A DNA stretch of 64,000 nt from Gammaproteobacteria bacterium (GTDB lineage Bacteria; Pseudomonadota; Gammaproteobacteria; Steroidobacterales; Rariloculaceae): NCBI GenBank assembly GCA_022825505.1, contig JAJDWR010000036.1, forward strand, positions 6,034 through 70,033, in the 5' to 3' direction. Below the pieces are notes generated by a model that saw only the letters and a program-made list of their open reading frames with translations, did not search any database and was not told the origin of the DNA. Numbering within the stretch: the first letter of the stretch is position 1; the number at the start of each line of letters is the position of its first letter. The position numbers were made by a program, and so were the translations under genes. This document shows, in pieces, positions 1-62,019 of the stretch.

Positions 1-1
1 C

Positions 2-2104
2 TATGACCTGCCCACCGGCCGCGATGCCGGGGTCGAAGACACCGCACTGGAAGACGCCCTGCAGGTCATCGGCCGGCATGAAGGCATCGAATTCAGGATT
101 CCGGTGCGCTCCCGATCTTCCGATTCGGTGATCGGCCTCACGGACGTTCTAGATTCTTCAGGCGTCCGTGCCCGGCGCGTGCGATTCAGGGCCGAGGGGA
201 GCTGGTGGCGCGGCGACAGCAACGCACTGCTGGCATTTCGCTCCGGAGACGGGCAGCCCGTCGCGCTGTTGCCGGGCATGTTCGGGCGCTACCGCGAAGT
301 CGATCCCGTCAGCAAGCGCAGCGTCCGGCTGACGGCGGCTCGGGCCGAAGCGCTGCAGCAGGAAGCCTGGATGTTCTATCGGCCATTGCCGCCGGAGAAT
401 GTGAAACCGGCGGACCTGCTGCGAATCGCCCTGCATGGAGCGGGCGCGGACCTGGTGCGGCTGGTGATCGCCGGGCTGCCGGGCGGCCTCATCAAACTGC
501 TGCCGGCGCTCGCGCTCGGGTTCGTTGCCAATCACATCGCGGCCGGCGGAAGCGCCGGAGCGCTCTATGCAGTGGCCGTGACGCTGGCGGCGTTCGGCCT
601 GCTCGGCGCGCTGCTGCACCTGGCGCAGAGTTCGGCGATGATGCGGCTGGAGGGGCGCTCGGCCTCAAGGGTTGAAGCGGCCTTCTGGGACCGCCTCATG
701 CGACTTCCGTCAAGCATTCTGCACCGCCATCCGGCCGGCGACCTGGCCATGTCGGGAATGACGTTTCAAAATCTGCGCGATGGCCTGCAGGGCGTCATCG
801 CCGACAGTGTGCTTTCGCTCGTTTTTCTGCTGCCAGTCTTTGCCGTCATCTTTTTCTACGATGCCGCTCTCGGGACCGTCACCCTGGTCTTCAGCCTGAT
901 TTCGCTGCTGGTCACCGTCGCTATCGGGTTGCGCCAGATTGCACCCCATGGGCGGATGATCGGCGCGATTCGCCGCGTAGCGGGCCGCCTGTTCCAGATT
1001 GTGGGCGGTATCGCCAAGCTGCGCGTGGAAAACGCGGAAGGGTCGGCGTTCGCCATGTGGGCCGAGGATTACAGGGAGCAGAAACGCGCAGAGCTCCAAC
1101 TGGGCGTGCTCGAGGGGCATGCGAGGGCCTTTGGCGCCGCGCTGCCCCTGGTTGCCGGCGGCGTGCTGCTGCTCGCAGTGGCAACGGTGAGCGACCGGAA
1201 TGTCCCAGTGGGCGACTTTCTGGTCATTTACACCGTCTTCATCGCCTTTCAGTACGCCATTGCCCGGCTAGGCGAGTCCTTCGGCACCACTGCCTCCATG
1301 CTGCCGGCGTTTGACCAGATGCGCCCGCTGCTGGCCACGATTCCCGAGTCAGCGGCCGGGGGAGAGCCGGTAGGCCGTCTGGGCGGCGACGTGCTGTTCG
1401 ACCGCATTTCCTTCCGCTACGATCCCGACGGCCCGCTGATACTGGACGATGTCACGATTCGCGCCCGTCCCGGCGAGTTCATCGCCATTGCCGGGGAGTC
1501 CGGCGCCGGCAAGAGCACGCTGTTCCGCCTTGCGCTTGGCATCGACACGCCAGCGGCCGGCGCAGTGTATTACGACGGCCGCGACCTGAGGCACCTGAAC
1601 CTGAAGCAGTTGCGCCGCAAGATCGGTGCGGTTCCGCAGTCGGTGCGGCTGCATCCCCAGGATATCTGGGACAACATCGTCGCGCACCACGAAGGGCCGA
1701 CCACCGAAGAAGTGTGGCAGACGGCCCGCGCCGCCGGAATCGAAAAGGAAATCAAGGCGATGCCCATGGGGATGATGACCATGGTCGGGGCCAGCGGGGC
1801 GGTCCTCTCGGGGGGCGAGAGTCAGCGCGTCACCATCGCCCGTTCGCTGCTCGGCAGCCCGCGCGTCATGCTGCTGGACGAGGCAACCAACTGGCTCGAC
1901 AACGAAAACCAGGCCGAGGTCATGCAGAACCTGGCGCTGCTCACCTCCACCCGAATCGTGATCGCCCACCGCCTGTCCACGCTGGAGCAGGCTGACCGCA
2001 TCTACGTGCTGCAGGCCGGGAGGGTCGTGCAAAAGGGCTCATTCGAGGATCTGATGGAGGTTGACGGGGTATTCAGAAGGTTGGTCAAGAGGCAGATCGC
2101 CTGA
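2..2104 (+). CDS. Bacteriocin/RiPP-type ABC exporter, fused permease + ATPase (NHLM-system-like); 5' end at or just beyond the window edge
   Basis: The frame is open from nt 2; the first in-window start is GTG 104. A hydrophobic TMD half is followed by Walker A GESGAGKST, signature LSGGESQR, Walker B VMLLDEAT and H-loop IAHR. No C39 peptidase motif in the part present. Directly upstream of the YcaO/NHLP genes. Confidence 0.85.
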   Translation, partial: YDLPTGRDAGVEDTALEDALQVIGRHEGIEFRIPVRSRSSDSVIGLTDVLDSSGVRARRVRFRAEGSWWRGDSNALLAFRSGDGQPVALLPGMFGRYREVDPVSKRSVRLTAARAEALQQEAWMFYRPLPPENVKPADLLRIALHGAGADLVRLVIAGLPGGLIKLLPALALGFVANHIAAGGSAGALYAVAVTLAAFGLLGALLHLAQSSAMMRLEGRSASRVEAAFWDRLMRLPSSILHRHPAGDLAMSGMTFQNLRDGLQGVIADSVLSLVFLLPVFAVIFFYDAALGTVTLVFSLISLLVTVAIGLRQIAPHGRMIGAIRRVAGRLFQIVGGIAKLRVENAEGSAFAMWAEDYREQKRAELQLGVLEGHARAFGAALPLVAGGVLLLAVATVSDRNVPVGDFLVIYTVFIAFQYAIARLGESFGTTASMLPAFDQMRPLLATIPESAAGGEPVGRLGGDVLFDRISFRYDPDGPLILDDVTIRARPGEFIAIAGESGAGKSTLFRLALGIDTPAAGAVYYDGRDLRHLNLKQLRRKIGAVPQSVRLHPQDIWDNIVAHHEGPTTEEVWQTARAAGIEKEIKAMPMGMMTMVGASGAVLSGGESQRVTIARSLLGSPRVMLLDEATNWLDNENQAEVMQNLALLTSTRIVIAHRLSTLEQADRIYVLQAGRVVQKGSFEDLMEVDGVFRRLVKRQIA

Positions 2105-2135: not shown

Positions 2136-3515
2136 ATGAAGGAACCAGCCAACGCAACGGAACGTCTTCTCCTCAAGGCTGCGAATGACAGCGAGTACCG
2201 CGCGCGCCTGCTCGCGCATCCAAGGGATGCGATAGAACAGGAATTCGGCGTGGCGCTGGCCGAAGGCCATGAAATTCACGTGCACGAAGAAACCGATGGT
2301 GCGACGCACCTGGTGCTGCCGCCGAAGAGCCGGTTCAGCGAGGAAGAACGCGAGGCAGCGAGGACAGGCGCGTCCTCGCTCGAGTTCCTGAAGAAGACGA
2401 TGTACGACCCGGCCCCTCCAATGCGCCCACCTGCCGGGGAAGCGACGGCTGCCGGAAAAGCAGCGGGTGACAGGGAAGCGGTGACTGAGGGGGAAGCGGC
2501 GGTGGCCGGCAGAGCCTCGGCTGCGGGGGTGGGTTCCCTTGACAACGAGGCGTTGGGGAAGGCCGGCAGGGAGAGCATCCGCCGCGGACTCGCGTTCCTG
2601 GGATCCACAATCGACGAGAACGGGGCCTGGCACTGCATCCGGTTCAACATCGCCGACCCGGACATACCGCGGCATTTCGAGCGGCCACCGTTCGTTTCGG
2701 CATTCTGCGTTCTGGCCCTGGAAAGCAGCAACGAGCCGCGCGCCAGGGCCATCTGCGCCGCCACGCGGGGGTACCTTGCCGACACCATGGAATACCCGGG
2801 ATTCTGGCGCTACTACCGCCATCTCCCCCAGGATCTCGACAGTACGGCGCTCTGTTCGCTGGTCATCGGGAATCACCCCTGGATTCTGCTGGAAAGGAAC
2901 GTTCCCCGGATGCTGGCGAATCGCGACGAGAAGGGTTGCTTCATGACATGGGTGCTGGCGGAACACGAACCCAATGTCGTGGCGACCTTCCGCATTGAAG
3001 CCGACCCGGTAGTCAATGCGAACGTCATCGCGTACCTGGGCGACGGGCCCGATACCCGGGATGCCCAGCGATGGCTGGAAGCCATGATTGTCGAAGACCG
3101 GCTAGAGGGCGCCTCCAAGTGGTATCCGGACAAGGCCGCGATCTACTACGCAACCACCCGGGCCATGATCCGCGCGCGGCCCGCCCTGGAAGCACTTCGA
3201 CCGATACTCGCGGATCGCATTCTCGGCCTGCGTGACCCGAGGGGAGAATTCGGCGACATCCTTCAGACTGCTCAGGCGATGTCGGCGCTCTACAATATCG
3301 GCAGCCTTGGACGCATCGACGCGAGACACGGAGTGGAGAGGTTCATCGGTTCGCAACGTGACGACGGCAGCTGGCCGGAGTTGCTCGCGTTCGGCGACCA
3401 ATCGCTGAATTGGGGCACAGTGGGGCAGATCGGACATGGCTCCGAGGCCGTGACGACTGCGTTTTGTATCGAAGCCCTGGAGCGTCTCGTCGAAACCCTG
3501 GAAGATGCAGGCTGA
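2136..3515 (+). CDS. Two-domain protein: NHLP-leader-like N-terminal domain, Ala/Gly/Pro/Glu-rich linker, prenyltransferase/squalene-cyclase-repeat (alpha/alpha toroid) C-terminal domain
   Basis: ATG 2136 (the track start at 2061 overlaps the ABC gene). aa 1-78 align ungapped and in register with aa 1-78 of the 7107..7358 precursor (25/78 identical by hand count). The C-terminal ~330 aa carries repeats such as GLAFLGSTIDENGAWHC, FVSAFCVLALE, RFIGSQRDDGSWPE and TTAFCIEALE, typical of PFTB/SHC-type repeats. Confidence 0.7.
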   Translation: MKEPANATERLLLKAANDSEYRARLLAHPRDAIEQEFGVALAEGHEIHVHEETDGATHLVLPPKSRFSEEEREAARTGASSLEFLKKTMYDPAPPMRPPAGEATAAGKAAGDREAVTEGEAAVAGRASAAGVGSLDNEALGKAGRESIRRGLAFLGSTIDENGAWHCIRFNIADPDIPRHFERPPFVSAFCVLALESSNEPRARAICAATRGYLADTMEYPGFWRYYRHLPQDLDSTALCSLVIGNHPWILLERNVPRMLANRDEKGCFMTWVLAEHEPNVVATFRIEADPVVNANVIAYLGDGPDTRDAQRWLEAMIVEDRLEGASKWYPDKAAIYYATTRAMIRARPALEALRPILADRILGLRDPRGEFGDILQTAQAMSALYNIGSLGRIDARHGVERFIGSQRDDGSWPELLAFGDQSLNWGTVGQIGHGSEAVTTAFCIEALERLVETLEDAG

Positions 3516-5853
3516 TCCGGCTCGGAAGTCCCGGGTGAAGTTCCCCACGGACACGAACATCCGGCAGGGGATCCTGCTCAGGACGACTCCCGGGGACCAG
3601 GGCCTCGTCAGGCTGCCTGCGCTTGCTCCGCACCTGCAGTTTCGCACCATTGGCGAAGAGCGGACGCTGCTGGTATCGGAGTCCTTCAATACGCTGCTGC
3701 ACGGCAGGCTGTACCCCGATCTGCTGCCGCTGCTGGACGGCCGCCTCGCGCAGGAGAAGATTGCCGCCAGGCTTGCGGACACCCATGCCGCTGCCGATGT
3801 GCTTGCAGCCATCGTTTCGCTGACGGCCAAGGGCTACGTCGTCTCTGCCGAACATGGCATGGAGGCGGCCCGGGCGGCCTACTGGTCGTCACTGGGTGCG
3901 TCGCCGCGCTGGGTCGAACAGCGGCTCGTGGAATCGCGTGTGGCGGTTGAAGGGGACGGCGGACGGCTGGCCGGGCACCTTGAAGCGTCCGGCGCCCGGG
4001 TGGGAACCGACGATCCCGCGCTCACCGTCATCGTCTGCGAGGACTATCTCGAAGAAGAGTTCGTCGATGTCAATCGGCGGCAGATGGAGCTGGGCGCACC
4101 GTGGATGCTGGTGCGGCCCCGCGGAATCGAACCGCTGTTCGGCCCGGTCTTCCGCCCGCACGAACAAGGGCCCTGTTGGGCGTGCCTGGCCTACCGCCTG
4201 CGCAGCCACCGGGAAGTACACAATTTCCTGCGCAACCTTGGCGGCGAGGAGGCTGCCTTCAGGCCGTTTGCGGCGAATCCGACTGTGCTCGAAGCAGTCT
4301 ACGGGCTGACCGCGGCGGAGATCGCCAAGTGGCTGGTGCTGGACGAGACGGCCCCGATTCACGCACAGGCGATCACCATGAATGTCGGCACGTTCGCAAG
4401 TTCCCGGCACCCGGTGATGCGCCGGCCGCAGTGTCCGGCCTGCGGCGACGAAGCGTTGCATCGGCCGGACCGGCCGCCGGTCCCGCTGAACCTCAGGGCG
4501 AGCCCCAAGGCCCACCTGAACAGCGGCGGCGCACGCACGGTGGCGCCGGAAGTCACCCTGGCAAGGTACCGTCACCTGGTGAGTCCGGTCAGCGGAGTCG
4601 TGACCTGGCTCAGGCGCACGACCGACGAGACCGATTCCTGGCTGCACGTCTATTGGGCCGGAAGCAATCTCGGCATGAGAAGCCGGACCCTGGGTTCGCT
4701 GAGGCGCAGCCTGCGCAGCAAGAGCGCCGGCAAGGGCAGCACCCGGGAGCAGTCCGAGGTCAGCGCGCTCTGCGAGGCGGTGGAGCGCTATTCGGGCGCC
4801 CTGCATGGCGAGGAGATCCGTCTGCGCAGGCGATTCAGCGAATTCGCCGGCGGGGACGAAGCGATACACCCCAACGAGGTGCAGCTTTTCAGCGACCATC
4901 AGCTCGATAACGCAGCAGGCATCAATGCGAAAGGCCACCCTTACAATGTCGTCCCCCCGCGTCTTGACCTCGATGCCGAGATCGACTGGACACCGGTGTG
5001 GTCGCTGACCCGGGAGCGGCATCGCTACCTGCCCACGTCGATGCTCTACAGCATGGCGCCCGAACAGCGCGGCACCGCCGACCTGATCGCCGATTCCAAC
5101 GGCTGCGCCGCGGGCAATACGCTGGAAGAGGCCATCCTGCAGGGCTTTTACGAACTGGTGGAGCGCGATGCGTTCGGTATCTGGTGGTACAACCGGCTGC
5201 GGATGCCCGCGGTCGATCTGGCCGGCTTCGACGACGAGTACCTGGCATCGGCCGCCGACTACTACGCCCGCTGCGAGCGGGACGTATGGATGCTCGACGT
5301 GACCGCCGATATCGGCATCCCGACGTTCGTGGCGTTGTCACGCAGGCCGGACGGTGAAACCGAGGACATCATTTACGGCGCCGGCGCCCACGCCGACCCG
5401 CGTATCGCGGCACTGCGTGCGATCTGCGAACTGAACCAGTGCCTGACCTGGCTGCCGCGGCCCGGCGGCCGGGACGGCCGGCCGATGATCGACGACCCCC
5501 TGGCGCTCCAGTGGTGGAAAACCGCCCGACTCGCCGACTGCCGCTGGCTGGCACCTCCGGCGGATGCGCCCTTGCGCGATCCCTCGATTTATCCGGTAAC
5601 AGACTCGACGGACGCGCGTGACGACGTGGAGCATTGCCGCGCCCTTGTAGAAGCCAGGGGCATGGAGTTCCTGGTACTGGATCAGACCCGGCCCGACATC
5701 GGCATGCCCGTGGTGCGGGTCATCGTGCCGGGCATGCGCCACTTCTGGGCGCGGTTCGCGCCCGGGCGCCTCTACGACGTGCCGGTGAGCCTGGGCCGTC
5801 GCGAATGCCCCCTCGCCGAAGCCGAATTGAATCCGACTCCCGTCATCGCATGA
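3505..5853 (+). CDS. Fused TOMM cyclodehydratase: E1/ThiF-like (SagC-type) N-terminal domain + YcaO (SagD-type) domain
   Basis: Paired CxxC motifs (GPCWAC, QCPACG) in the N-terminal ~330 aa. YcaO motifs GKGSTREQSEVSALCEAVERYSG, NGCAAGNTLEEAILQGFYELVERDA and VVRVIVPGM. Pro-rich C-terminus LNPTPVIA. The ATG overlaps the upstream stop by 11 nt. Confidence 0.9.
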   Translation: MQADPARKSRVKFPTDTNIRQGILLRTTPGDQGLVRLPALAPHLQFRTIGEERTLLVSESFNTLLHGRLYPDLLPLLDGRLAQEKIAARLADTHAAADVLAAIVSLTAKGYVVSAEHGMEAARAAYWSSLGASPRWVEQRLVESRVAVEGDGGRLAGHLEASGARVGTDDPALTVIVCEDYLEEEFVDVNRRQMELGAPWMLVRPRGIEPLFGPVFRPHEQGPCWACLAYRLRSHREVHNFLRNLGGEEAAFRPFAANPTVLEAVYGLTAAEIAKWLVLDETAPIHAQAITMNVGTFASSRHPVMRRPQCPACGDEALHRPDRPPVPLNLRASPKAHLNSGGARTVAPEVTLARYRHLVSPVSGVVTWLRRTTDETDSWLHVYWAGSNLGMRSRTLGSLRRSLRSKSAGKGSTREQSEVSALCEAVERYSGALHGEEIRLRRRFSEFAGGDEAIHPNEVQLFSDHQLDNAAGINAKGHPYNVVPPRLDLDAEIDWTPVWSLTRERHRYLPTSMLYSMAPEQRGTADLIADSNGCAAGNTLEEAILQGFYELVERDAFGIWWYNRLRMPAVDLAGFDDEYLASAADYYARCERDVWMLDVTADIGIPTFVALSRRPDGETEDIIYGAGAHADPRIAALRAICELNQCLTWLPRPGGRDGRPMIDDPLALQWWKTARLADCRWLAPPADAPLRDPSIYPVTDSTDARDDVEHCRALVEARGMEFLVLDQTRPDIGMPVVRVIVPGMRHFWARFAPGRLYDVPVSLGRRECPLAEAELNPTPVIA

Positions 5854-5862
5854 GGAAGCGAC

Positions 5863-6981
5863 ATGGACATTGACCGGGCAGTGACGCTGACCGAGGACCG
5901 TCTCGCAGAGGAAGGCGGCACCATGGGTGACCTGCTTGGGCACTTTCGAAACAGGATTTCTCCGATTCTCGTCGGCAACTCGGAATGGGAACGCATACTC
6001 CAGTGCGCGGGCAGACTTCCGGGCACCATGGCCGCCCTTCCCTTCGGCTTTGAACTGCCGCTGCACGAGCCCCGGCCGGTGGCGGATTTCGGAGCGTCGC
6101 TGGCCAGCGGAACACGAACGGCGGCATTTTTCGAAGCGCGCGCGCGCACCGGCGAGGCCGATGAGACGGCCAGATCGATTACCCGTCTGTTCAGGGAAAT
6201 GGAAGCCGAACACTCGCCCCTGCGCGAGATCGTCGGCCGCAAGCTGATGCTTGAATATGACATCGGCTCGGCGCAGGACGGTGGGCGCTCCGACCCGGCG
6301 CTGTTCCTGCGGCCCGGCGAACGCCCGATCATCGGCGGCGGCGGCCAGTTGGGCGATGTCCGCACGGTAGTCGATGCGCTGGTTGACTGCGCAGGCTGGG
6401 AGCGCAACGACGCCGAGCGGAAGAACGTCGAACGGGCCTACCTGGCCCAGCCGGGCGATACGCGCCTGGATTCGTTCGGCGTCTTCCCGTCGCGCTCGCG
6501 GTCGATCCGCCTGGCGGTCATGGGCTTCCGGACGCAGCAGGAAGCGTGCGTCTATCTCGAAAACACGGGCTGGCCAGGCCGGATTTCGGCGGTCGACGCG
6601 GTGATTTCACGCTTCAGGGAACGCGCGAATATCGTCAGGACCGGAGTCAATATCGATGTGCGCAAAGAGGGTCTCGGACCGACGCTCGGCCTGACACTGA
6701 TCGTCAAGCAGCGGTATACGAAGGACTCGCGCTACTGGCTCGACGGCCTGACCGACTGGGATCCGTTCCTGGACGCGTTGGGCCACGAAGACCTGGTCGT
6801 TCCGGAGAAGCTTGAGGCGGTCGCCGGCTGGGTTTCGAATCCGACCGCCCTGTTTGCGAAGACCGGGCGCTTCGTACTGCTGCGCGGCATCCACCACATC
6901 AAACTGGTCATTTCAGGCAACCGGCTCAGCAAGGCCAAGGCTTACGTGTTCCTCGTGCTCTCCGGCGCGGTCTCCTCCTGA
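5863..6981 (+). CDS. Hypothetical protein of the RiPP operon (no motif recognised; possible five-fold beta-beta-alpha-alpha repeat)
   Basis: The ATG lies 10 nt after the YcaO stop, with AGGAAG upstream. Coding-like composition, same strand, tightly packed. No nitroreductase/SagB-like, radical-SAM or protease motif seen. Confidence 0.65.
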   Translation: MDIDRAVTLTEDRLAEEGGTMGDLLGHFRNRISPILVGNSEWERILQCAGRLPGTMAALPFGFELPLHEPRPVADFGASLASGTRTAAFFEARARTGEADETARSITRLFREMEAEHSPLREIVGRKLMLEYDIGSAQDGGRSDPALFLRPGERPIIGGGGQLGDVRTVVDALVDCAGWERNDAERKNVERAYLAQPGDTRLDSFGVFPSRSRSIRLAVMGFRTQQEACVYLENTGWPGRISAVDAVISRFRERANIVRTGVNIDVRKEGLGPTLGLTLIVKQRYTKDSRYWLDGLTDWDPFLDALGHEDLVVPEKLEAVAGWVSNPTALFAKTGRFVLLRGIHHIKLVISGNRLSKAKAYVFLVLSGAVSS

Positions 6982-7058
6982 CATCGGTCTGAAACGCCCA
7001 CAACAAACCCCACCCGCCCCGCAAGGGGCCGATGGGGGCATGGGTTAAGGCTATGTTC

Positions 7059-7108
7059 GAATGCAGGCAGTTCTGCATTCTGGCCGGCTGTCGCCGGCTG
7101 CCGGTTTT
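7059..7108. terminator. Putative bidirectional terminator between the convergent RiPP operon and the precursor gene
   Basis: Perfect 8-bp hairpin GAATGCAG-N6-CTGCATTC (7059..7080). Then GCCGGC-TGTC-GCCGGC (7083..7098), followed on the + strand by a short T run (7105..7108). No long U-tract on the minus side. Confidence 0.35.
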
Positions 7109-7358
7109 ACCAGCAACAGCAGAGTCCGGCGGAGATCGCTTCGAGCTGCTCCTCGGTGATGTTGGGATCCGGCGGCAGCGCAAGATGGACCGTCTGCATG
7201 TCACTCTCGTGCACCTTGACCGTCATCGACTCGGGAATCGTGATGCCCAATTCCTCGCTGATGGTCGCCTTCGGATCGGAAAGTAGCGCCTGACGGAAAT
7301 CTTCATCCAGGGCCGACTTCTCAACGATCTGCTGTAACATTTCGTCGCCACTTCGCAT
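7107..7358 (-). CDS. NHLP (nitrile-hydratase-leader-peptide) family RiPP precursor; predicted core LCCCW
   Basis: 83 aa, with AGGAG 6 nt upstream of the ATG. Leader pattern DFRQALLSDPKATISEELGITIPESMTVKVHESDMQTVHLALPP. Double-glycine-type spacing in ITEEQLEAISAG (I -4, L -7, I -12). The protein ends ...AG-LCCCW-TAA. Adjacent to the YcaO cyclodehydratase and ABC exporter. Confidence 0.85.
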   Translation of the reverse strand: MRSGDEMLQQIVEKSALDEDFRQALLSDPKATISEELGITIPESMTVKVHESDMQTVHLALPPDPNITEEQLEAISAGLCCCW

Positions 7359-7397
7359 CGCTTGCTCCTAAATCAAACCAATACAACGGATCACGTC

Positions 7398-7438
7398 CGG
7401 GATGCGAGTAATATCCCGCAACTGCGGTAACTTCACAA
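7398..7438 (-). promoter_or_regulatory. Candidate sigma70 promoter and overlapping inverted repeat upstream of the precursor gene
   Basis: On the minus strand: TTGTGA (7438..7433), 17 nt spacer, GATATT (7415..7410), about 50 nt upstream of the ATG. The inverted repeat CGGGAT-N9-ATCCCG (7398..7418) overlaps the -10. The region is AT-richer than its flanks. Confidence 0.3.
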
Positions 7439-7622
7439 GCGTATTTTCTTATATCGCCGGTTAATTTTTCCAATAGCAACAGTTCGCAAGACACAACCCC
7501 AAATCACTTGTTTCTGCTGGCAACATTCGCCTGCCGAACGTCCTTCCAGCGACTTGTGGTGAGATTTACGGTTTCAGGGAATCACGGTACTATGAAAAAA
7601 ATCCATCGCGGGACCCAGCCGG

Positions 7623-8498
7623 ATGTTTCCTGACCGAGAAATTGCGAAAGAGTTGCCTGTTGGCCAGGGTTCGCCAAGACATTCTTGCGTCCCCCGGAAT
7701 GGTGGTTCGCCGGGTACCCTCGTAATGGCGCTTGCAAGCTTCTGTCTTGTAGGCGGACCGGCCCTTGCCCAAAACGAAACGCCGGAAGAAAAAGGCCTGA
7801 GGCTGGCCCTTGAGGCCAGCGCCAGCAACGAGGGCTTCGGGGATTTCACCGCCGGGTTGACGATGGTGCTACGCGACCGGCAGGGACGCGAGAGCGTCCG
7901 CCAGATGCGCTTCAAGGTGCTTGAGGTGCCGGGGGACGGGGACAAGAGCCTGTTCGTATTCGATCAACCGCGGGACGTGCAGGGAACCGCTCTCCTGACC
8001 CACGCTCACGCCAACACCCAGGACGACCAGTGGCTGTATCTGCCGGCCCTGGAAAGGGTCAAGCGCATCAGTGCTTCGACGCGGTCGGGATCGTTCATGG
8101 GCAGCGAGTTTTCCTATGAAGACATGAGCGCCCCCGAGGTGGAGGAATACACGTACAGATACCTTCGCGACGAACCCTGCGGCGAACTCACCTGTACGGT
8201 GACCGAGCAGTTTCCTCTGGATGAGAAAACCGGATACAGCCGCAAGGTCATCTGGCAGGATACCGGCGATCTGCGAACGTGGAAGATGGAGATGTACGAC
8301 CGGCGTGACTCGCACCTGAAGACGCTGACTTTTGCCGATTACGGACTCTATCTCGACCGGTTCTGGCGGGCAGGCGAACAGACCATGGTGAACCACCTGA
8401 CCGGCGCGAGCACGGTGCTTCACTGGACCGACTTTGCGTTCGGTACAGGACTCGAAGACGGCGAGTTCACCCAGACGGCACTGCGGCGCGTGCGCTGA
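7623..8498 (+). CDS. Outer-membrane lipoprotein-sorting (LolA-like) family protein
   Basis: The pattern GDKSLFVFDQPRDVQGTALLTH...DDQWLYLPALERVKRISASTRSGSFMGSEFSYEDMS matches the LolA_like family as I recall it. The true start may be ATG 7725 (MALASFCLVGGPALAQ signal). Confidence 0.7.
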   Translation: MFPDREIAKELPVGQGSPRHSCVPRNGGSPGTLVMALASFCLVGGPALAQNETPEEKGLRLALEASASNEGFGDFTAGLTMVLRDRQGRESVRQMRFKVLEVPGDGDKSLFVFDQPRDVQGTALLTHAHANTQDDQWLYLPALERVKRISASTRSGSFMGSEFSYEDMSAPEVEEYTYRYLRDEPCGELTCTVTEQFPLDEKTGYSRKVIWQDTGDLRTWKMEMYDRRDSHLKTLTFADYGLYLDRFWRAGEQTMVNHLTGASTVLHWTDFAFGTGLEDGEFTQTALRRVR

Positions 8499-9733
8499 TG
8501 CAACCTGGCCGCACAGTCGCGGCCCTCGCCCTCGTGTTCATGACCGGCGCGGGCGCCGAAGCGCAAACTCTCGACCTTTCGGGCGACCTGAGCCTGCCTG
8601 CGCGGTGGTATCCCCAATCGCCGGCCTTTCCCGAACAGCGTTCGAGCACCGGTGGGCTGGTCGCGGAGCCGACGCTCTACTGGGAAACCGCGCAGAACAC
8701 CAGCCTGACCCTGACCCCGTTTTACCGGTACGACAGCGCCGATGCGCAACGCACCCACGGGGACGTACGCGAGGCGTACCTGTTGACGTATGGAGACTGG
8801 GGCGAGAATTTCTGGGAGCTCCGGCTGGGACTGGACCGCGCCTTCTGGGGCGTGGCCGAACTGAACAACCTGGTGGATATCGTCAACCAGCTCGACCTCG
8901 TGGAGCATCCCCGCGACCGGCCCAAGCTGGGTCAGCCCATGGCGCGCCTGACGATATCCGGCGACTGGGGCATCACCGAAGCCTTCCTGCTGCCGTATCA
9001 CCGCAAGCGTACGTTTCCGGGCCCCGCCGGACGTTTGAGGTCGGGCCTGTTGATCGACGAGAATGCCCTGTACGAGAGCAGCGACGAAGAGCGCCACGTG
9101 GATTTTGCGGCCCGCTACAGCCACTACGTGGGCGTGCTCGATTTCGGCCTGAGCACATTTGCCGGTACCAGCCGCGAACCCTCATTTCTCCTGGGACCTC
9201 CATCGGAGCTGCAGCCGGCGACCGTCCCGCGCCTGATCCCGTACTACGAGCAGATCCGGCAGTTCGGGATCGACGCGCAACTCACAACCGGGACCTGGCT
9301 TTACAAGATGGAAGCCATTCACCGCAGCGGGGTACGCAATCTGCTGGGGCAGAAGGAGGATTACCGCGCCTCGATCCTGGGCCTGGAACGCACGGTCTAC
9401 GGCCTGTTCGGGTCCACAAGGGACCTGACCCTGCTCGCCGAGTGGCACCACGACGGGCGGGGCCACCGTGCGCCGACCGCCTGGGACAACGACGTCTTTA
9501 TCGCCGGCTTCCTTGCGTTCAACGATGTGGCGGGCACCGAGCTCATCGCGGGCATCCTGGCTGACCTGGGCCACGATTACCGGGCGGTGAACTTCGACCT
9601 GAAACGCCGCCTGTCGGCCAGTTGGTCCATGCGCCTGGAGTCGATCGTGGTCGTCAGCGCGGATCCTGCGGACCTGACCTACGACGTACGGCGCGACAGC
9701 TTCCTGGGCGTGGACTTCACGTTCAGCTACTGA
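8498..9733 (+). CDS. Putative outer-membrane beta-barrel protein
   Basis: Signal peptide (AALALVFMTGAGAEAQ). Alternating amphipathic segments. C-terminal GVDFTFSY, an aromatic terminal residue typical of OMPs. The start overlaps the upstream stop (TGATG). Confidence 0.55.
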   Translation: MQPGRTVAALALVFMTGAGAEAQTLDLSGDLSLPARWYPQSPAFPEQRSSTGGLVAEPTLYWETAQNTSLTLTPFYRYDSADAQRTHGDVREAYLLTYGDWGENFWELRLGLDRAFWGVAELNNLVDIVNQLDLVEHPRDRPKLGQPMARLTISGDWGITEAFLLPYHRKRTFPGPAGRLRSGLLIDENALYESSDEERHVDFAARYSHYVGVLDFGLSTFAGTSREPSFLLGPPSELQPATVPRLIPYYEQIRQFGIDAQLTTGTWLYKMEAIHRSGVRNLLGQKEDYRASILGLERTVYGLFGSTRDLTLLAEWHHDGRGHRAPTAWDNDVFIAGFLAFNDVAGTELIAGILADLGHDYRAVNFDLKRRLSASWSMRLESIVVVSADPADLTYDVRRDSFLGVDFTFSY

Positions 9734-9829: not shown

Positions 9830-11104
9830 GTGATACAGCCAGGCGCTAAATCGTTGCGGAGGATCGCGGTAATCGGCCGGGGAACGGCAGGCTCCCTGGC
9901 CGCCGCCAGCGTGACGCGCATGCATCCGGACAGCGGCCACGAACTGCACCACATCTACGACTCGCGCATCCCCGTCATCGGCGTGGGCGAAGGCAGTTGG
10001 CCGAGCCTGGTCCAGGAATTGCAGAAACTGACGAACTTGTCCCAGGAAACCGTTCAGCAGCGACTGAACGGAACCCGCAAGTACGGCGTTGCCTTCGAGG
10101 GATGGGGCCGGCGCAAGCGAAACTTTACCCACTACTTCACCCCGCAGCAGGTCTCCTACGCCTACCACCTCTCCGCCGACGTGATGGCGGACCTTCTGCA
10201 CGAGAGCACGCGCGCGCGCCACATCGACGCGAACGTGACCAATATCACCCGGGTGAAGGGCGGCGCACAGGTGGAATTCGACGGCCGGGCGCCGCAACGG
10301 TACGACCTGGTCTTCGATGCCCGCGGGTTTCCCAGGAAACTGAACCCCGACCGGCACATCGAGATTTCCTTCATCCCCACCAATACGGCCGTTATCCGCC
10401 GCTGCCCGGCCATCGTTCGGCACGAGCAGGACGGGCCGGTGGTGAAACACACCTACACACGTGCGGTTGCGCGCCCTCACGGCTGGATATTTGTCATCCC
10501 GCTGACCGTGCACACCTCCTACGGGTACATTTTCAACCGCGATGTTTCAAACCTCGCCGAAGTCGAGTCGGACTTCGACGAGTTCCTCGAGGCCGACGGC
10601 GTGCCGGAATTCGAGCAGCGCGCCGTCATTCCCTTCCCCAACTTCGTCCACCGCAAAATTTACGATGGCGTGGTGGCCCGCATCGGCAACGCGGCCGCCT
10701 TCATGGAGCCCCTGGAAGCCACGGCCATCGTATCGGCCCAGATACAGATCGGGATGGTGCTCCAGATGCGCCTGAACCGTGCGATCGAGCACCTCGAGCG
10801 CGACGCACCGGTGGTCAATCGGTTCCTGATCAGCAACATGCTCTGCTACGGCCTGTTCGTCGGCTGGCACTACTCCCGCGGCTCCAACTACGACACGGAG
10901 TTCTGGCGTTTCGCCCGGCATGACGTCTGGCCGAGGCACCGTACCGCCGCCGCCCCCGAGGCGGTGGATTGCACCGCGCTGAGCAAGTTCGATGAAATGA
11001 TCGACCTGCTGAACCAGCCGGTCATCGACAAGGAGGACTGGGACCGGATGTGCGCAGTCCCGCTCACCAGCTACGCGCAGATGTCCCAGGGGCTGGGAAT
11101 TTAG
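9830..11104 (+). CDS. Tryptophan-halogenase-family FAD-dependent protein
   Basis: GTG start with GGAGGA upstream. N-terminal Rossmann motif IAVIGRGTAGSLAA, then VIGVGEGSWPSL. HGWIFVIPL resembles the WxWxIP motif, with the second W replaced by F. Confidence 0.6.
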   Translation: MIQPGAKSLRRIAVIGRGTAGSLAAASVTRMHPDSGHELHHIYDSRIPVIGVGEGSWPSLVQELQKLTNLSQETVQQRLNGTRKYGVAFEGWGRRKRNFTHYFTPQQVSYAYHLSADVMADLLHESTRARHIDANVTNITRVKGGAQVEFDGRAPQRYDLVFDARGFPRKLNPDRHIEISFIPTNTAVIRRCPAIVRHEQDGPVVKHTYTRAVARPHGWIFVIPLTVHTSYGYIFNRDVSNLAEVESDFDEFLEADGVPEFEQRAVIPFPNFVHRKIYDGVVARIGNAAAFMEPLEATAIVSAQIQIGMVLQMRLNRAIEHLERDAPVVNRFLISNMLCYGLFVGWHYSRGSNYDTEFWRFARHDVWPRHRTAAAPEAVDCTALSKFDEMIDLLNQPVIDKEDWDRMCAVPLTSYAQMSQGLGI

Positions 11105-11114: not shown

Positions 11115-13571
11115 TTAGAGCGAGTCGATATCAGTAGCAGCTTGACCGGCGGTCTCGTGCACGGCCGTTGTCAGGGATTCGAAATCGGCGAAGCCGCACG
11201 ACCTGGCAATTGCCGCCCTTACACCGGGCTTGGCCGCCTCGACGTCCAGAGACCCGTCGGCCACAAGGCAGCGAATCCCTTGCAGATTGCGCCACAAGGC
11301 TGCTGCCTGGGCCAGGCGCTCGGCGGTTTCGCCGTCCATCAGGCCGCCCTCACCGGCGGTGCGGAACGTGGTTCCGGCATCGAGCGTCTCCAGGCCGTCA
11401 TCGCCGTCGGCAAGGCGCAGGCGTAACTGGCGGGCGGCACGTTCGACCGCCCCGAAACCGCCGCGTTCGGGTTCGAGCGGCGAGTTGGCCCTCTCGGTGG
11501 GCTCGATCACGCTTCCTTCGGGCCCGCCTGGGCTGCCGTCAGGCTCGCTGCCGCCGGCGACGGGCTCGCTGTAGCTGTTGTCTGGCTCGCCGATGGAACC
11601 CGCGCCACTGCCCTCCCCGGCCAGCGCTTCGCGCCGGGCCGTTTCGAATTGCGTTTCGATCATGGCGTCGCCGAACGAGAAGATGCACCTGGCCCGGGTC
11701 AGGTCCCCGGGTTCGCTCGGCACGCCAGGGCCGCCGAACCCGGCCCCGAACTCGGCGAGCGAAACGGCAGTGACCGTACTCTCCCCGCGCGACGTCGGAG
11801 CAAACAGCAGATTGTCCTGCGTGAGCGCGTGCAGCGCATCGCGAATGCGCCGGCACAGTGCCTCGTAGTGCGCCGCCGGGCCGCCCTCGTGGACCAGCAG
11901 CATCCGCAGTTCGAGGCCGGGTGCGGCCTCGCCGCTTGCCGCATCGCCCAGCACGACCGCGGCAAGGCCGCCCGTGGCGCCGAGGCTGCCAAAGTCCTCT
12001 TCGATCGACCCGAGCACGGCGCCCACGGACGCTTCGGCGATGTTGGACAGCGCCGTCCCGGCCTCGATGGGCGTCAGGTTTCCGCGCAGGGTATGCATCC
12101 CGATCTGGAACGCCTTGTCGTTGGTCCAGTTCCTGGCGGCATCCACGGTTTCGCGCACGTCCTGGACCGGGTAATCGTCGATACGCGCCCGCATTTCGGC
12201 GACGTCCAGTTCCCGAGTCCAGTAAATCCGGGTGAGTCCGCGGCGCGCGATGGACTCGACTTCCGCGGTCGGGCCGAAACCCTTGGGCAGGTCGAGGTCG
12301 GTGAATTCCCTGTTCCTGAGGTTGTCCAGCAGTTCCGGAGACCGGTCGATCCAGGCGGCCAGCCGCGGAGCCGACGCGAAGATCTCTTCAATCTCCTCGA
12401 ACGCGTCGGGGCGCTCTGCGGTGGCCGGACTGTCGTAGGCGCTCCAGTCGTCGATATCGGGATAGAAATGCTTGCGCCAGCGGTCCACGCGCGGGTCCAT
12501 CTTCTCGAACCAGCGGCGCGGCCTTACCGCCAGGCCGGCCATCTCGACATAGGTCCCCGGCAGTTGCGGCGCGGCATCGGGGCCGCAGTGCTGCAACAGC
12601 GGATAGCGCCGCCCCGGCGCGATGTGGTGGTCCGGGTGGCGCTGCATGTTGAAGAAGAACCAGTTGCTCAACTTGTACGCCGCGCTCCAGGAATGCCAGG
12701 GCTGGACTCGCTCGTACCGGCCGTTCGGCAGCCGGATGCGCCGCAGCCCGTAGTGCTGGACGTAGTTGATGAGCTTCATCGACATGATGATGCAGGTGCA
12801 CAGAATGACGTAGCCCAGCACGGCCCATGGGCCGCCCATCCAGTACATCAGCACATACCAGGCGGCGGTTACGCCCACGTATCGCCAGAACGGATTCGTG
12901 TAATGCCAGACCGGCAGGCGGCGGCGAGTCAGCCGCTGCCGTTCGAACACCCAGGCGCCGGTGAGGTTGCTCTTGATTTCCCGGGGGAGGTAACGCCAGA
13001 AACTCACCCCCTTGGGTGCAGAACCGGGATCTCCCGGGGTACCTACAAGGGAATGGTGGACAAAGATATGTTCCGACGCATAGGTCGGATACGAGACCGA
13101 AGCCAGGATGACCTCGCCAAGCCGGCGTTCCCACACCGCGCGCCGATGAATCAGTTCATGGCCGACAATGAACGAGACCTGGCCCACAGTGGTCAGCACG
13201 AACGCCATCAGGATGATTTCGAACAGCGCCAGGTGATCCGAAAGAAACATCTGCCAGAGGCAGAACACAAACGTGACCGGCCAGAGGATGCCCCACGCCC
13301 AGCATGACAGCTTGTACCAGGACAACTGCCGGTCGATCGTGCGCCGCGGGTCCATGTTTCCCTCGTCGGCGCCGGACATGGCATCGAAAACGTCCGGAAT
13401 CATGAAATAGAGGTAGGGGGCGGCGATCCACCAGCTTCCCTGCACCGCGGCGATGGCCATGAACGGGAACACGCCCAGCGAAAGAAAATACGGAAGCGAG
13501 TTGGCGAATGACGGCAGGACAGGCACGTCCGGCACCGCCGAATCGGGACTCATGCTGGGTTGCTCAGCCAT
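11115..13571 (-). CDS. AlkB-type membrane di-iron alkane hydroxylase fused to a ~430-aa C-terminal GlnE-like (degenerate nucleotidyltransferase) region
   Basis: All four His boxes are present: GHELIHRR, SEHIFVHHSLVG, LINYVQHYGL, NMQRHPDHHIAPGRRY. The C-terminal part (FQIGMHTLRGNLTPIEAGTALSNIAEASVGAVL ... LAAVVLGDAASGEAAPGLELRMLLVHEG) resembles the GlnE adenylyltransferase core, but the G-S/DxD positions are substituted. Confidence 0.75.
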   Translation of the reverse strand: MAEQPSMSPDSAVPDVPVLPSFANSLPYFLSLGVFPFMAIAAVQGSWWIAAPYLYFMIPDVFDAMSGADEGNMDPRRTIDRQLSWYKLSCWAWGILWPVTFVFCLWQMFLSDHLALFEIILMAFVLTTVGQVSFIVGHELIHRRAVWERRLGEVILASVSYPTYASEHIFVHHSLVGTPGDPGSAPKGVSFWRYLPREIKSNLTGAWVFERQRLTRRRLPVWHYTNPFWRYVGVTAAWYVLMYWMGGPWAVLGYVILCTCIIMSMKLINYVQHYGLRRIRLPNGRYERVQPWHSWSAAYKLSNWFFFNMQRHPDHHIAPGRRYPLLQHCGPDAAPQLPGTYVEMAGLAVRPRRWFEKMDPRVDRWRKHFYPDIDDWSAYDSPATAERPDAFEEIEEIFASAPRLAAWIDRSPELLDNLRNREFTDLDLPKGFGPTAEVESIARRGLTRIYWTRELDVAEMRARIDDYPVQDVRETVDAARNWTNDKAFQIGMHTLRGNLTPIEAGTALSNIAEASVGAVLGSIEEDFGSLGATGGLAAVVLGDAASGEAAPGLELRMLLVHEGGPAAHYEALCRRIRDALHALTQDNLLFAPTSRGESTVTAVSLAEFGAGFGGPGVPSEPGDLTRARCIFSFGDAMIETQFETARREALAGEGSGAGSIGEPDNSYSEPVAGGSEPDGSPGGPEGSVIEPTERANSPLEPERGGFGAVERAARQLRLRLADGDDGLETLDAGTTFRTAGEGGLMDGETAERLAQAAALWRNLQGIRCLVADGSLDVEAAKPGVRAAIARSCGFADFESLTTAVHETAGQAATDIDSL

Positions 13572-13710: not shown

Positions 13711-16700
13711 TCAGGCTTCTGCGCGAGAACGCTCCCTGACTTGCAGCACAATACCGTAGACGACCGGCAAGACCAGAAGGCATAGCAGCAGCGTAGTGAC
13801 CATGCCGCCGATCATCGGCGCGGCGATTCGCTGCATGACGTCCGATCCCGCACCGCTGGCCAGCATGATGGGCAGCAGTCCCACGATGGTCGACACCGCC
13901 GTCATGGACACCGCCCGCACCCGGCGTGAGGTGCCCAGATGGACCGCTTCGCTTATTTCCCCGGCCGTCAGGGAGACGACGCTCGCTCCGGCGTGCGACC
14001 AGGGCACCGGCGCATCGCCATGCGAAACGACGTCGTGCCCCCCCTCGGGCGAAAGTGCCTCGTGCTTTTGCCGGCGCCGTTCCGCGACCGCCTTTTCGAT
14101 AAAGGTCAGCACGAGCACGCCCGTTTCCACGGCAACACCGGCAAGGGCGATGAACCCGACGGCTACAGCCACGGAGATATTGAATCCCAGCCAGTGCACG
14201 GCCCAGAAGCCGCCTACCAGCGCGAACGGTACCGAGAGCATCACGGTCAACGGTGCGGCGACGTTGCGGAAGTTGAGATACAGCAGCAGGAACATCAGGA
14301 ACAGGGTCAGCGGTATGACGACGCGAAGCCTGGCGGCCGCCCGCTCCAGGTATTCGTACTGGCCCGACCACGTGAGGGCATAGCCGGGTGGAATCGTGAG
14401 CTGCTCTGCCAGCAACGCCCGTGCCCGGGTCACGTAGCCGCCCACATCCGAGGTGGAAATGTCCACGGACACCCATGCATTCGGACGGGCGCCTTCGCTC
14501 TTGATCACCGGCGGCCCGCGATTCAATTCGATGTTCGCGAGCTGGCCGAGCGGGATCTGCGCGCCGGACGGCGTGGGAATCAGCACGCGCTGCAATTGCA
14601 GCGGGTCGTCCCGCAACTCCCGCGGATAGCGAATGTTGACCGGGTAACGCTCCAGGCCCTCCACGGTTTCGGTCACCTGGACGCCGCCGATGGCGGACAT
14701 GATGACGTCCTGGATGTCTCGAACCGTCAGGCCGTAGCGGGCGGCTTCCGGCCGCCGGATATCGAAGTCCAGAAAGTAACCGCCCGCCGCCCGGTCGCCG
14801 AACGCCGACAGGGTATCGGGGAGGGAAGTCATGATCTGCTCGGCATCCAGAGCCAGGCGCTGAAGCTCTTCCAGGTCCGGCCCGCTGATCTTGATCCCCA
14901 CCGGGGTCCTGATGCCCGTGGAAAGCATGTCGATCCGGGTCCTGATGGGCATCGTCCAGGTATTCGCAAGGCCCGGGAAGCGGATGGCGGCGTCCATCTC
15001 CCGCATGAGGTCCGATGTGGATTTGCGCGGATCCGGCCATTCTCCCTTCGGTTTCAGCTGCACCACCGTCTCGATCATCGACAGGGGCGCCGGATCCGTC
15101 GCCGTTTCGGCGCGGCCGATCTTGCCGAACACCGATTCCACTTCCGGGAACGTGGTCAGAATCCTGTCCGTCTGCTGCAGCAATTCCTCCGCCTTGGTGA
15201 TGGAAACGCCCGGGAACGTCGTCGGCATGTAGAGAATGTCGCCTTCGTCCAGCGGCGGCATGAACTCGGTCCCGAGCCGGGAAAGCGGAAACCAGACGGT
15301 TGCCAGTACCCCCGCTGCAACGACCAGGGTTACAACACGCCAGCGGAGAAAGCCGCGCAGGACCGGGGCGTGAACCGCGCGCAGCAAACGGGTGATCGGA
15401 TTGGCCGACTCCGGAAGGATACGGCCGCGCACGAGCAACCCGATCAGCAGCGGCACGACGGTCACCGCCAGCAGCGCCGCGCCCACCATGGAATAACTGC
15501 TCGTGAACGCCAGGGGCTTGAAGAGCCGGCCCTCCTGCGCTTCGAGTGTGAAGATTGCGAAGTAGGAAACGACGATGACCAGCAGGGAGAAGAACAGCGC
15601 CGGGCCCACCTCCCTGGCCGACTCGACGACGGTTCGCCAGCGCTCTCCTGAAGTCAGCGGTGCGGATTTTTCGGCGGCGGCGCGCGCCAGCCGCTTGTGC
15701 GCGTTCTCGATGAGCACGATGGGACCGTCCACCATGGCGCCGATGGCGATGGCAATGCCTCCCAGGGACATGATGTTCGCGTTGATGCCCTGGATTCGCA
15801 TCAGGATGAAGGCCAGCAGAATGCCGATCGGCAATGTGAGTACCACCACAAGCGCCGACCGCAGGTGCAGGAGAAACACCGCGCAGACCAGCGTCACCAG
15901 CGCAATCTCGATCAGCAGCGTGTTGGAGAGATTGTCGACAGCGTTCTCGATCAGCGCCCCGCGGTCGTAGACGGGCACGACCTCCACCCCTGCCGGCAAT
16001 CCGGGCTTCAGCTCCTCGAGCCGTGCCCGGACCCGTTCGATGGTTTCGAGCGCATTTTCCCCGTAACGCATCACGACCACGCCGCCCGCCACCTCGCCTT
16101 CGCCGTTGAGTTCGGCCACGCCCCTGCGCAATTCCGGTCCGGTCTGCACCTGCGCGATGTCGCGGACCCGGATCGGGGTGCCCTGCTCGTCCACACTGAC
16201 GGCGACCTGTTCGATATCCTCGATGGACTGGATGTACCCCAGTCCCCGCACCATGTACTCGGTCTCGGACATTTCCACGAGACGGCCGCCCACGTCGCCG
16301 TTGGATCGCATGATGGCCTGCCGGACCGTGGAGATGGGAATGTTGTAGGCAAGCAGTGCGTTGGGATCCACCACCACCTGGTACTGCTTCACGTAACCGC
16401 CGATGGACGCCACCTCGGCGACGCCCGGCACGGTCTGCAACGGGTAACGCAGGTACCAGTCCTGGATGCTGCGCAACTCCGAGAGATCGAGTTGGCCGCT
16501 ACGGTCCACCAGCGCGTACTCGTAGATCCAACCCACGCCGGTCGCGTCGGGGCCCAGGGTCGGCGTGACCCCCTCCGGCAAGCGGCCGCTGACGTAGTTG
16601 AGGTACTCCAGTACGCGCGACCGGGCCCAGTACATGTCGGTGCCGTCGTCGAAGATGATGTAGACGAAGGAAAACCCGAAGAACGAGAAACCGCGCACGA

Positions 16701-37854: not shown

Positions 37855-37934
37855 TTTCGTTTTCTCCCCATTTACTGCAGATCAGGTTTTTCTCCCGATT
37901 ATTTTCTATTCCTGACCGGATTTCGTTGCGTGGC

Positions 37935-39221: not shown

Positions 39222-39359
39222 TCCTTAACTGTTGGTAATGACTGCCGGTTGGCGAACCGACTCGCAAACATTCTTTTGTACAATAGCAAGTTCGCCACTG
39301 GGTTGGCGAACGGCAATGGCGCAGACAACAGGCTGAAATTGCCTGAAGGACCATAAACG

Positions 39360-40400: not shown

Positions 40401-40485
40401 CGGCCGGGATATCGGATTGACCGTTACCAACGACCGGTACCGATATTGCGAAACAATTTCCATTCGATTAGGAGAGACGTCGAAC

Positions 40486-41085
40486 ATGAACGCGACACGA
40501 GCACTTCAATTCCTGGGTATCGCTTTCACGCTGGCTGCCGCGCAGGCCACCGCTGAACCGGTCACGTACAGGGTCGACCCCCGGCACACGTTTCCCGCGT
40601 TCGAAGCCGATCACCAGGGCGGGCTCTCGGTCTGGCGGGGAAAGATCGAACGCTCGAGCGGCACGATCGTTCTCGACAGGGAAGCGCGCACCGGCACCGT
40701 AGAGATGATCATGGACATGGACTCGATCAACTTCGGGCTGGACGAAATGACGGACCACGCCAAGGCCGAGGACATTCTGGACGTGGCGCGGTTCCCCACT
40801 GCGACCTACACGGGCGCCCTGACCGAATTCGGGCGTACGGGCGTGCCGACCGCCGTGGAGGGTGAACTGACGCTGCATGGAATCACCCGGCCGCTGCGGC
40901 TGCAGATCAACCACTTCCAGTGCCAGCCGCACCATCGAACGGGCGTGGAGATATGCGGCGCCGACGCCACGGCCACATTCAATCGCGATGATTTCGATGT
41001 GAGCTACGGCAAGGAAAACGGTTTTTTCATGTACGTCAACCTGCTGCTCACGGTGGAGGCGGAGCGAGTCGACCCTGAGTCCTGA
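40486..41085 (+). CDS. YceI family periplasmic protein
   Basis: ATG 40486 with GGAGAG upstream. YRVDPRHTFPAFEADH..., ...ATYTG..., GELTLHGITRPL. Confidence 0.85.
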   Translation: MNATRALQFLGIAFTLAAAQATAEPVTYRVDPRHTFPAFEADHQGGLSVWRGKIERSSGTIVLDREARTGTVEMIMDMDSINFGLDEMTDHAKAEDILDVARFPTATYTGALTEFGRTGVPTAVEGELTLHGITRPLRLQINHFQCQPHHRTGVEICGADATATFNRDDFDVSYGKENGFFMYVNLLLTVEAERVDPES

Positions 41086-41123
41086 TCGCCTGCGTCAATT
41101 TCTGCGACGCGCCTGCCCGGCCC

Positions 41124-62018: not shown

Positions 62019-62019
62019 T

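Follow-up and report, generated by a model that had tools for sequence, protein, structure and literature searches.

A short open reading frame in a gammaproteobacterial contig raises the question of what can be made from a peptide precursor whose predicted core comprises only five residues, LCCCW. The frame lies in a stretch of 64,000 nucleotides of contig JAJDWR010000036.1, hereafter called the window. A first-pass annotation of the letters had placed an 83-aa ORF with an AGGAG-N6-ATG start at 7107-7358, without stating its strand. Both the frame and its ribosome-binding site are confirmed, and they are located on the minus strand. The gene is 252 bp long, encodes 83 residues plus the stop and is built up as follows:

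7365..7369, minus strand: Shine-Dalgarno sequence AGGAG (ctcct on the plus strand), separated from the precursor ATG by a 6-nt spacer, 7364-7359
7107..7358, minus strand: NHLP (proteusin) RiPP precursor, assigned as a srpE ortholog on its translation, its TIGR03793 match, 84% identity to SrpE and a core found in 118/120 of the best homologues
7358-7356, minus strand: ATG start, read from the sequence
7125-7358, minus strand: leader, codons 1-78
7110-7124, minus strand: core LCCCW
7107-7109, minus strand: stop codon

The full translation is MRSGDEMLQQIVEKSALDEDFRQALLSDPKATISEELGITIPESMTVKVHESDMQTVHLALPPDPNITEEQLEAISAGLCCCW, then stop, and the C-terminus consists of ...ITEEQLEAISAG followed by LCCCW and the stop codon. 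The proposal that the leader belongs to the NHLP type has been borne out by the profile search that it called for: NCBIfam TIGR03793 (leader_NHLP) matches residues 6-78 with 74.4 bits (E 4.9e-21), above the curated cut-off of 50.9 bits. Pfam NHase_alpha reaches 35.8 bits against a threshold of 27.2, and the NHLP peptide MprE7, solved by NMR (PDB 8TB1), is matched at E 1.3e-9. The leader ends in AISAG, and the hydrophobic residues that had been described at -4, -7 and -12 are I75, L72 and I67, counted from G78. A promoter scan around the precursor found none, and a weak terminator-like hairpin at 7008-7026 is no better than chance expectation. The precursor ORF itself is real and far more than a chance feature.

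Whether such a peptide has been encountered before is answered by alignment with published SrpE. The two precursors share 70/83 residues (84%) without gaps and have the same end, AISAG followed by LCCCW. SrpE is the proteusin precursor of the srp, or 'sponge-derived RiPP proteusin', clusters, and its core is stated as LCCCW (PMC10286304, PMC10858898), the sequences of the SrpE leader and of SrpI being given in a supplementary note of PMC10286304. The same core recurs in sponge MAGs of many phyla in 'a single 252 bp gene' with very high transcript levels, and ITEEQL is the commoner variant of the consensus leader motif (10.1101/2023.06.09.544420). The leader in the window carries precisely this ITEEQL, an I/L-x4-L motif. 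On the strength of its 84% identity to SrpE, its length of 252 bp, the ITEEQL motif and the LCCCW core, the precursor is judged to be an ortholog of the published one. By sequence comparison 7107-7358 encodes a close SrpE ortholog and belongs to an srp cluster of the typical kind; the feature is already known. The original srp study is reportedly that of Nguyen et al., J Am Chem Soc 2021, 143:10221, and the novelty implied by the first-pass annotation falls away, as publications on the srp system go back to 2021. A 2022 review of marine RiPPs makes no mention of srp.

The assignment extends to the surrounding genes, which are arranged in the window as follows:

1..2104, plus strand: ABC2, peptidase-less NHLP-bacteriocin ABC exporter subunit, C-terminal ~700 codons (TIGR03797, E 2.2e-200)
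2136..3515, plus strand: 459-aa protein; N-terminal domain NHLP-like, C-terminal part class II terpene-cyclase-like (beta-domain), joined by a variable Ala/Pro linker
3505..5853, plus strand: fused E1-like/RRE and YcaO cyclodehydratase, the putative SrpC counterpart (TIGR03882, TIGR03604, Pfam YcaO)
5863..6981, plus strand: 372-aa protein, familyless by sequence, 10 nt after the YcaO gene and convergent with the precursor
7623..8498, plus strand: LolA-like/TP_0789-like periplasmic lipid-carrier-type protein, accessory (Pfam LolA_like, 6.9e-57)
8498..9733, plus strand: 411-aa signal-peptide protein with a weak DUF1302-like match, accessory, paired with the LolA-like gene
9830..11104, plus strand: flavin-dependent Trp halogenase, SrpI ortholog (Pfam Trp_halogenase, 1.4e-42)
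11115..13571, minus strand: 818-aa fusion of an AlkB-type membrane di-iron hydroxylase/desaturase domain and a GlnE-like domain (Pfam FA_desaturase, 4.1e-30; GlnE, 1e-5)
13711-19571: CusA/CzcA-family RND pump (1211 bits), CusB-like adaptor and TolC-like protein, directly beside the cluster

The exact precursor protein is present on 15 metagenome contigs, with labels that include KELL22, ROBB21 and NGUY21; one of them, contig L001, matches the window at 100% identity over the entire cluster. Among the MAGs with homologues are Spongia_Bin9, SB06xx_bin, and RHO and COS bins. The names of these contigs and MAGs suggest sponge samples, and the NGUY21 label apparently denotes the original srp study. 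A related contig with this label carries nine consecutive genes, from a 438-aa homologue of the 459-aa protein through to the halogenase, and its gene neighbourhood matches that of the window. Counted along this row, the YcaO gene is number 3, the precursor number 5 and the halogenase number 9, which fits the letters of SrpC, SrpE and SrpI; we infer that the gene order on this contig maps onto the srp nomenclature. The window itself displays no signal of a horizontal-transfer island, with a GC content of 0.58-0.65 throughout and no step at the cluster.

The extent to which the peptide is conserved can be gauged from its homologues, of which the databases hold 666. The best 120 of these 666 are 82-98% identical; 116/120 are 83 aa long and 118/120 end in LCCCW. 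It had been anticipated that the C-terminal CCCW would be conserved while the leader drifts: the former expectation stands, and the latter does not, as the whole peptide is conserved. A codon comparison of 83 distinct intact precursor genes from different genomes and phyla, expressed as differences per codon per pair, revealed that the differences reside mostly at third codon positions. The core (codons 79-83) shows 0.005 non-synonymous versus 0.157 synonymous differences, leader codons 67-78 show 0.042 versus 0.373, and leader codons 1-66 show 0.151 versus 0.279. Purifying selection on the core is strong, and its sequence is essentially invariant. Moreover, no other gene of the cluster is as well conserved as the precursor, whose median identity to the window is 88% versus 51-81% for the enzymes.

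The distribution of the cluster was surveyed by scanning species-representative genomes with the 372-aa protein, whereby 210 genomes were matched and 80 loci, at 73-82% identity, were retrieved. These 80 loci belong to MAGs labelled as Alpha-, Gamma- and Deltaproteobacteria, Binatia, Acidobacteria orders, Nitrospinota, Gemmatimonadaceae, Opitutales and Rhodothermales. The isolate names of many of them point to sponges. It is from these loci that the 83 precursor genes of the codon comparison were taken. Gene presence was counted over 63 well-covered loci from different species. The 372-aa gene is present in 63/63, the precursor and ABC2 in 62/63 each, the 459-aa gene in 60/63, the YcaO gene in 58/63 and the FA_desaturase (AlkB-like) fusion in 51/63. 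The LolA-like gene follows with 35/63, and the 411-aa gene and the halogenase are found in 22/63 each. In addition, the 372-aa gene and the precursor are neighbours in nearly all of 92 loci.

How the core is likely to be processed can be read from the published system. The YcaO enzyme SrpC forms three thiazolines on SrpE, and SrpI, which requires an attached proteusin leader, brominates the C-terminal Trp at C6 of the indole (PMC10286304, PMC10858898). The double-glycine protease LahT150 frees the whole modified SrpE pentapeptide core (PMC10286304, PMC10858898). Masses of 569.15 for the modified tri-thiazoline core and 647.06 for its brominated form are given in Table S1 of PMC10286304. It is very probable, by analogy, that this scheme of leader, three thiazolines, 6-bromo-Trp and C39 cleavage and export applies to the locus in the window. 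The 78-residue nitrile-hydratase-like leader would present the LCCCW core to the tailoring enzymes. The fused E1-like/YcaO protein would then convert Cys80-82, with ATP, into three contiguous thiazolines, and the halogenase would recognise the I/L-x4-L motif (ITEEQL) near the leader end and brominate Trp83 at C6. Finally, the C39-peptidase ABC exporter together with ABC2 would cut after Ala-Gly (Gly78) and export the product.

These steps differ in their grounds. The identity of the genes, their neighbours and their conservation were observed directly in the window. The thiazolines, the bromination and its dependence on the leader would carry over from the papers on the ortholog SrpE. Cleavage and export by a PCAT would follow from the protein family, and any further tailoring we infer.

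The cyclodehydratase is well supported by profile matches. TIGR03882 covers residues 198-366 with 150.6 bits (cut-off 36.9) and TIGR03604 residues 409-779 with 277.3 bits (cut-off 219), while Pfam YcaO scores 328 bits; gene callers begin the gene at 3535. The enzyme is 67% identical to that on the NGUY21-labelled contig, which, rather than the published SrpC sequence itself, was the reference. A tri-thiazoline or tri-thiazole made by the neighbouring YcaO protein had been foreseen in the first-pass annotation, and three thiazolines are what has been published for SrpE and SrpC. That the rings would remain thiazolines rather than thiazoles rests on the literature, and it fits the finding that Pfam and NCBIfam domain scans disclosed no SagB-type (FMN-dependent) azoline dehydrogenase among the cluster genes.

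The halogenase, which is encoded ~2.5 kb from the precursor, had been overlooked in the first-pass annotation. It is 81% identical to published SrpI over the full length, and the catalytic lysine K84, Y102, Y110 and the P105-S109 loop are found at the published SrpI residue numbers. Bromide specificity and C6 regiochemistry would be as read from SrpI. SrpI is already in use as a bioconjugation tool. The cluster was discovered through its halogenase, a gene that looks accessory because it is present in only 22/63 loci.

The double-glycine-type boundary that had been proposed for a C39/ABC exporter has likewise found its counterparts: such a boundary is described for SrpE, and a C39 ABC exporter is encoded just beyond the left edge of the window. 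On contig L001 a 736-aa Peptidase_C39 ABC transporter precedes ABC2, which is 981 aa long there; the ABC2 gene starts ~840 nt before the window. This arrangement bears on an alternative in which the precursor is a reusable scaffold and a small molecule of the pearlin/ammosamide type is built on its C-terminus, a likeness that had also been suggested earlier. Ammosamide-type pathways make use of a Trp residue, and the five-residue core does end in one. However, Pfam and NCBIfam scans revealed no LanB-like/PEARL domain among the cluster genes, the core is genetically encoded, a double-glycine-type site is accompanied by a dedicated C39 exporter, and the published assays release the whole modified pentapeptide (PMC10286304). 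The layout of leader, core and PCAT is conventional, the likeness was not upheld, and a scaffold role is extremely improbable.

A further alternative concerns metals. Contiguous azolines and thiols can chelate metals, and the tri-thiazoline/thiol core might act as a chalkophore-like metal-binding unit tied to the adjacent heavy-metal efflux pump. The CusA/CzcA pump, the CusB-like adaptor and the TolC-like protein do lie directly beside the cluster, but an RND pump is adjacent only in close relatives of the window; it occurs in 2/63 other loci, at 22-23% identity. MbnB/MbnC-type genes are absent and the literature searched contains no link between srp and metals. The metal-binding unit that the first-pass annotation had offered as an option found no evidence, and we regard it as very unlikely. 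The pump was rejected as a member of the cluster, since its adjacency is restricted to close relatives.

The published two-step scheme may itself be incomplete, because the srp natural product is termed cryptic and SrpC alone performs poorly in E. coli (PMC10286304, PMC10858898). Three other conserved neighbours may merit closer attention. The 372-aa protein yields no Pfam, NCBIfam or PDB sequence match; a profile of 61 family members, which reach down to 24% identity to the window protein, has no PDB match, and the 61 members scanned singly have no meaningful Pfam match. An AlphaFold2 model (pLDDT 70, pTM 0.74) displays repeated alpha-beta-beta-alpha units in the expected secondary-structure order. 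When this model was compared with the PDB by Foldseek, the top 50 matches were all ABBA aromatic/indole prenyltransferases, including AmbP3, FamD1, EpzP, PriB, IptA, DMATS1, NotF, CdpNPT, CloQ and KgpF (best E 5e-5, TM 0.4-0.55). The protein is predicted to adopt an ABBA prenyltransferase-like fold, a link that is structural only and stems from one medium-confidence model.

The 459-aa protein appears to combine two elements. Its N-terminus scores 45.7 bits with TIGR03793, just below the cut-off of 50.9, and matches 8TB1 at 1.3e-4. Its C-terminal part gives a weak match (E 9e-6) to the class II cyclase domain of drimenol synthase (PDB 9MHS_B), in which QDLDST aligns with the DDLDTT motif of 9MHS. 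HLPQDLDS and the QW-like QxxDGSWPE are invariant in the family, where the motif takes the form QDLDS(T/S). Pfam SQHop_cyclase_C remains under threshold, and the AF2 model (pLDDT 52) is too poor for a fold search. The 818-aa fusion contains the His boxes HELIHR, EHIFVHH, NYVQHYG and RHPDHH, which we take to be typical of AlkB-type membrane hydroxylases. Distant relatives of the 372-aa protein (24-41% identical, tblastn) sit in other NHLP/PCAT clusters, the exception being locus L097, where the relative is only beside an MMPL transporter. The cores in these clusters are LCCCW, RCCC, LCCCMG and WDGSFADW, and the neighbours comprise MMPL or sterol-sensing-type lipid transporters and an MpaB/Lcp-type oxygenase.

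These proteins prompt an extension of the main account that we put forward tentatively, namely that the mature product is lipidated and probably an isoprenoid-bearing peptide, a RiPP-terpenoid hybrid lipopeptide. In this scheme prenylation of the core would be the task of the 372-aa protein. The cyclase-like protein, which would dock by means of its own NHLP-like domain, would either cyclise the prenyl chain or bind it, oxidation of that chain would fall to the AlkB-like enzyme, and bromination would be an optional late decoration. Several lines are consistent with such a route: the ABBA prediction holds across the structural matches, in the alignment with drimenol synthase the DxD(S/T)T element of the 459-aa protein falls on the class II motif, and the 818-aa protein has AlkB-type His boxes. 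The 372-aa, cyclase-like and AlkB-like genes (63/63, 60/63 and 51/63 loci) are, besides, far more regular companions of the precursor than the halogenase (22/63), and the distant relatives in other NHLP/PCAT clusters lie beside lipid transporters or an MpaB/Lcp-type oxygenase. On the other hand, the fold derives from a single medium-confidence model (pLDDT 70, TM 0.4-0.55), sequence searches linked the 372-aa family to no prenyltransferase, the match of the 459-aa protein to a cyclase is weak (E about 1e-5, with an AF2 model at pLDDT 52), and a polyprenyl-diphosphate synthase is absent nearby. Among the relatives, furthermore, there are cores that lack Trp (RCCC) or lack Cys (WDGSFADW), leaving no evident acceptor atom. 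Within this lipidation route, it is conceivable, though doubtful, that the 372-aa proteins constitute a new family of leader-guided peptide prenyltransferases. The literature searched contains no mention of prenylation or terpene cyclases in srp; the idea of prenylation may already be in the original 2021 srp paper.

Precedents for lipidation of such peptides do exist. PalX is an NHLP precursor whose C-terminal Trp is prenylated by PalQ (PMC10853753), and in the MppE/MppC/MppI system the Trp of a Nif11 lanthipeptide is brominated and geranylated (PMC11791876, PMC12715784). PalX and MppE share with the precursor in the window a long structured leader, a short core and a decorated Trp. PalQ, however, has an isoprenoid-synthase fold, not ABBA, and no sequence similarity was detected between it and the 372-aa protein. 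ABBA-fold peptide prenyltransferases are found as tailoring enzymes in cyanobactins. Cyanobactins and the linear azol(in)e peptides, or TOMMs, also have in common with the window the leader-guided, ATP-dependent cyclodehydration of Cys by a YcaO protein, but the locus described here differs from them in that it lacks a SagB-type dehydrogenase, its leader is of the NHLP type, its core has five residues and its product would undergo PCAT export rather than macrocyclisation. The locus also resembles the mpr proteusins. In MprE, too, the NHLP leader includes a structured core and an L-x4-L motif, and the Cys-derived azolines are formed by the RRE-containing YcaO protein MprC. The mpr cores are longer and varied and are accompanied by the flavin azoline oxidase MprD, whereas the cluster in the window lacks an oxidase gene, includes a halogenase and encodes a single, invariant core of five residues.

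Few biosynthetic loci in sponge microbiomes are as widely shared or as highly transcribed as the srp clusters, whose product and role in ecology are still described as cryptic. Should the prenyltransferase-like, cyclase-like and AlkB-like neighbours, all of them conserved, act on the peptide, this would explain the poor reconstitution with YcaO only, point to the true srp product and provide, alongside SrpI, a new enzyme family for leader-guided peptide lipidation. These terpenoid-type neighbours are the only part of the locus that might add something new.

In its main features the cluster in the window coincides with published srp and SrpE: an 83-aa precursor with the AISAG-LCCCW end, an SrpI-like halogenase (81%), a fused YcaO protein and homologues in sponge-associated MAGs. 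It deviates in three points. A small PliI-like gene upstream of the precursor in loci L009 and L010 is absent in the window. The AlkB-like gene comes after the halogenase in the window, whereas in most other srp loci it is placed between the cyclase-like and YcaO genes, and the leader motif reads LTEEQL in SrpE as against ITEEQL here.

Two proteins are encoded beside the YcaO gene of the srp cluster (sponge-derived RiPP proteusin clusters):

2136-3515, + strand: enzyme-sized protein with an N-terminal NHLP-leader-like domain of its own
5863-6981, + strand: 372-aa 'hypothetical' protein, whose gene starts 10 nt past the YcaO gene

The first is built of the NHLP-like domain followed by a variable Ala/Pro linker and then by a class II terpene-cyclase-like domain, in which QDLDS(T/S) is invariant. 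Within the NHLP-like domain, a TGA-A stretch is located at the position occupied by SAG-L in the precursor. The 372-aa protein is assignable to no family by sequence; the sole fold matches of its predicted structure are the ABBA aromatic/indole prenyltransferases. Its family, when clustered at 50%, yields 505 representatives, and distant members adjoin related NHLP precursors at three other loci:

L094:12434-12709, related NHLP precursor
L095:2061-2315, related NHLP precursor
L096:6033-6305, related NHLP precursor

These precursors end in short cores that differ from the LCCCW of the window and read RCCC, LCCCMG and WDGSFADW. At L096, YcaO is absent within 8 kb and a FAD_binding_4 oxidase is present.

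The halogenase lies no more than 10 kb away in only 22 of the 63 well-covered srp loci from related genomes (L013-L092), although the C-terminal Trp is retained in all the precursors of these loci; bromination therefore seems to be optional, or is encoded elsewhere. Loci L088 and L092 are distinct srp clusters separated by approximately 2 Mb on one MAG contig, CBDBZU010000004.1.

The genes that follow the halogenase in the window are the following:

11115-13571, - strand: AlkB-type membrane di-iron hydroxylase fused to a GlnE-like domain
13711-19571, - strand: CusA/CzcA-family RND pump, CusB-like adaptor and TolC-like outer-membrane protein, directly adjoining the cluster

In most other srp loci the AlkB-like fusion resides within the cluster, with the cyclase-like gene on one side and the YcaO gene on the other; in the window it has been relocated to a position past the halogenase. 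The adjacency of pump and cluster is restricted to close relatives of the window.

The 4.38-Mb contig L003 carries a precursor identical to that of the window; between it and the LolA-like gene, transposase genes intervene together with a single 420-aa gene that lacks annotation (L003:5684-9740), and an IS110-type transposase gene is found past the halogenase. Two further srp loci have an additional gene immediately upstream of the precursor:

L009:9364-9882, 172-aa PliI-like protein (periplasmic lysozyme inhibitor family)
L010:9365-9883, 172-aa PliI-like protein

This gene is missing from the window, where the gap upstream of the precursor (7359-7622) spans only 264 nt.

Elsewhere in the window, the interval 36295-42362 encodes an arylsulfotransferase-like protein, two NHL-repeat beta-propeller proteins and a virginiamycin-B-lyase-like protein. 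A tRNA-Ser(GGA) at 55266-55356 is the sole RNA gene detected within the window, and an AbiEii toxin-type nucleotidyltransferase and a Fic/DOC protein are encoded close to its right end (60255-63168).
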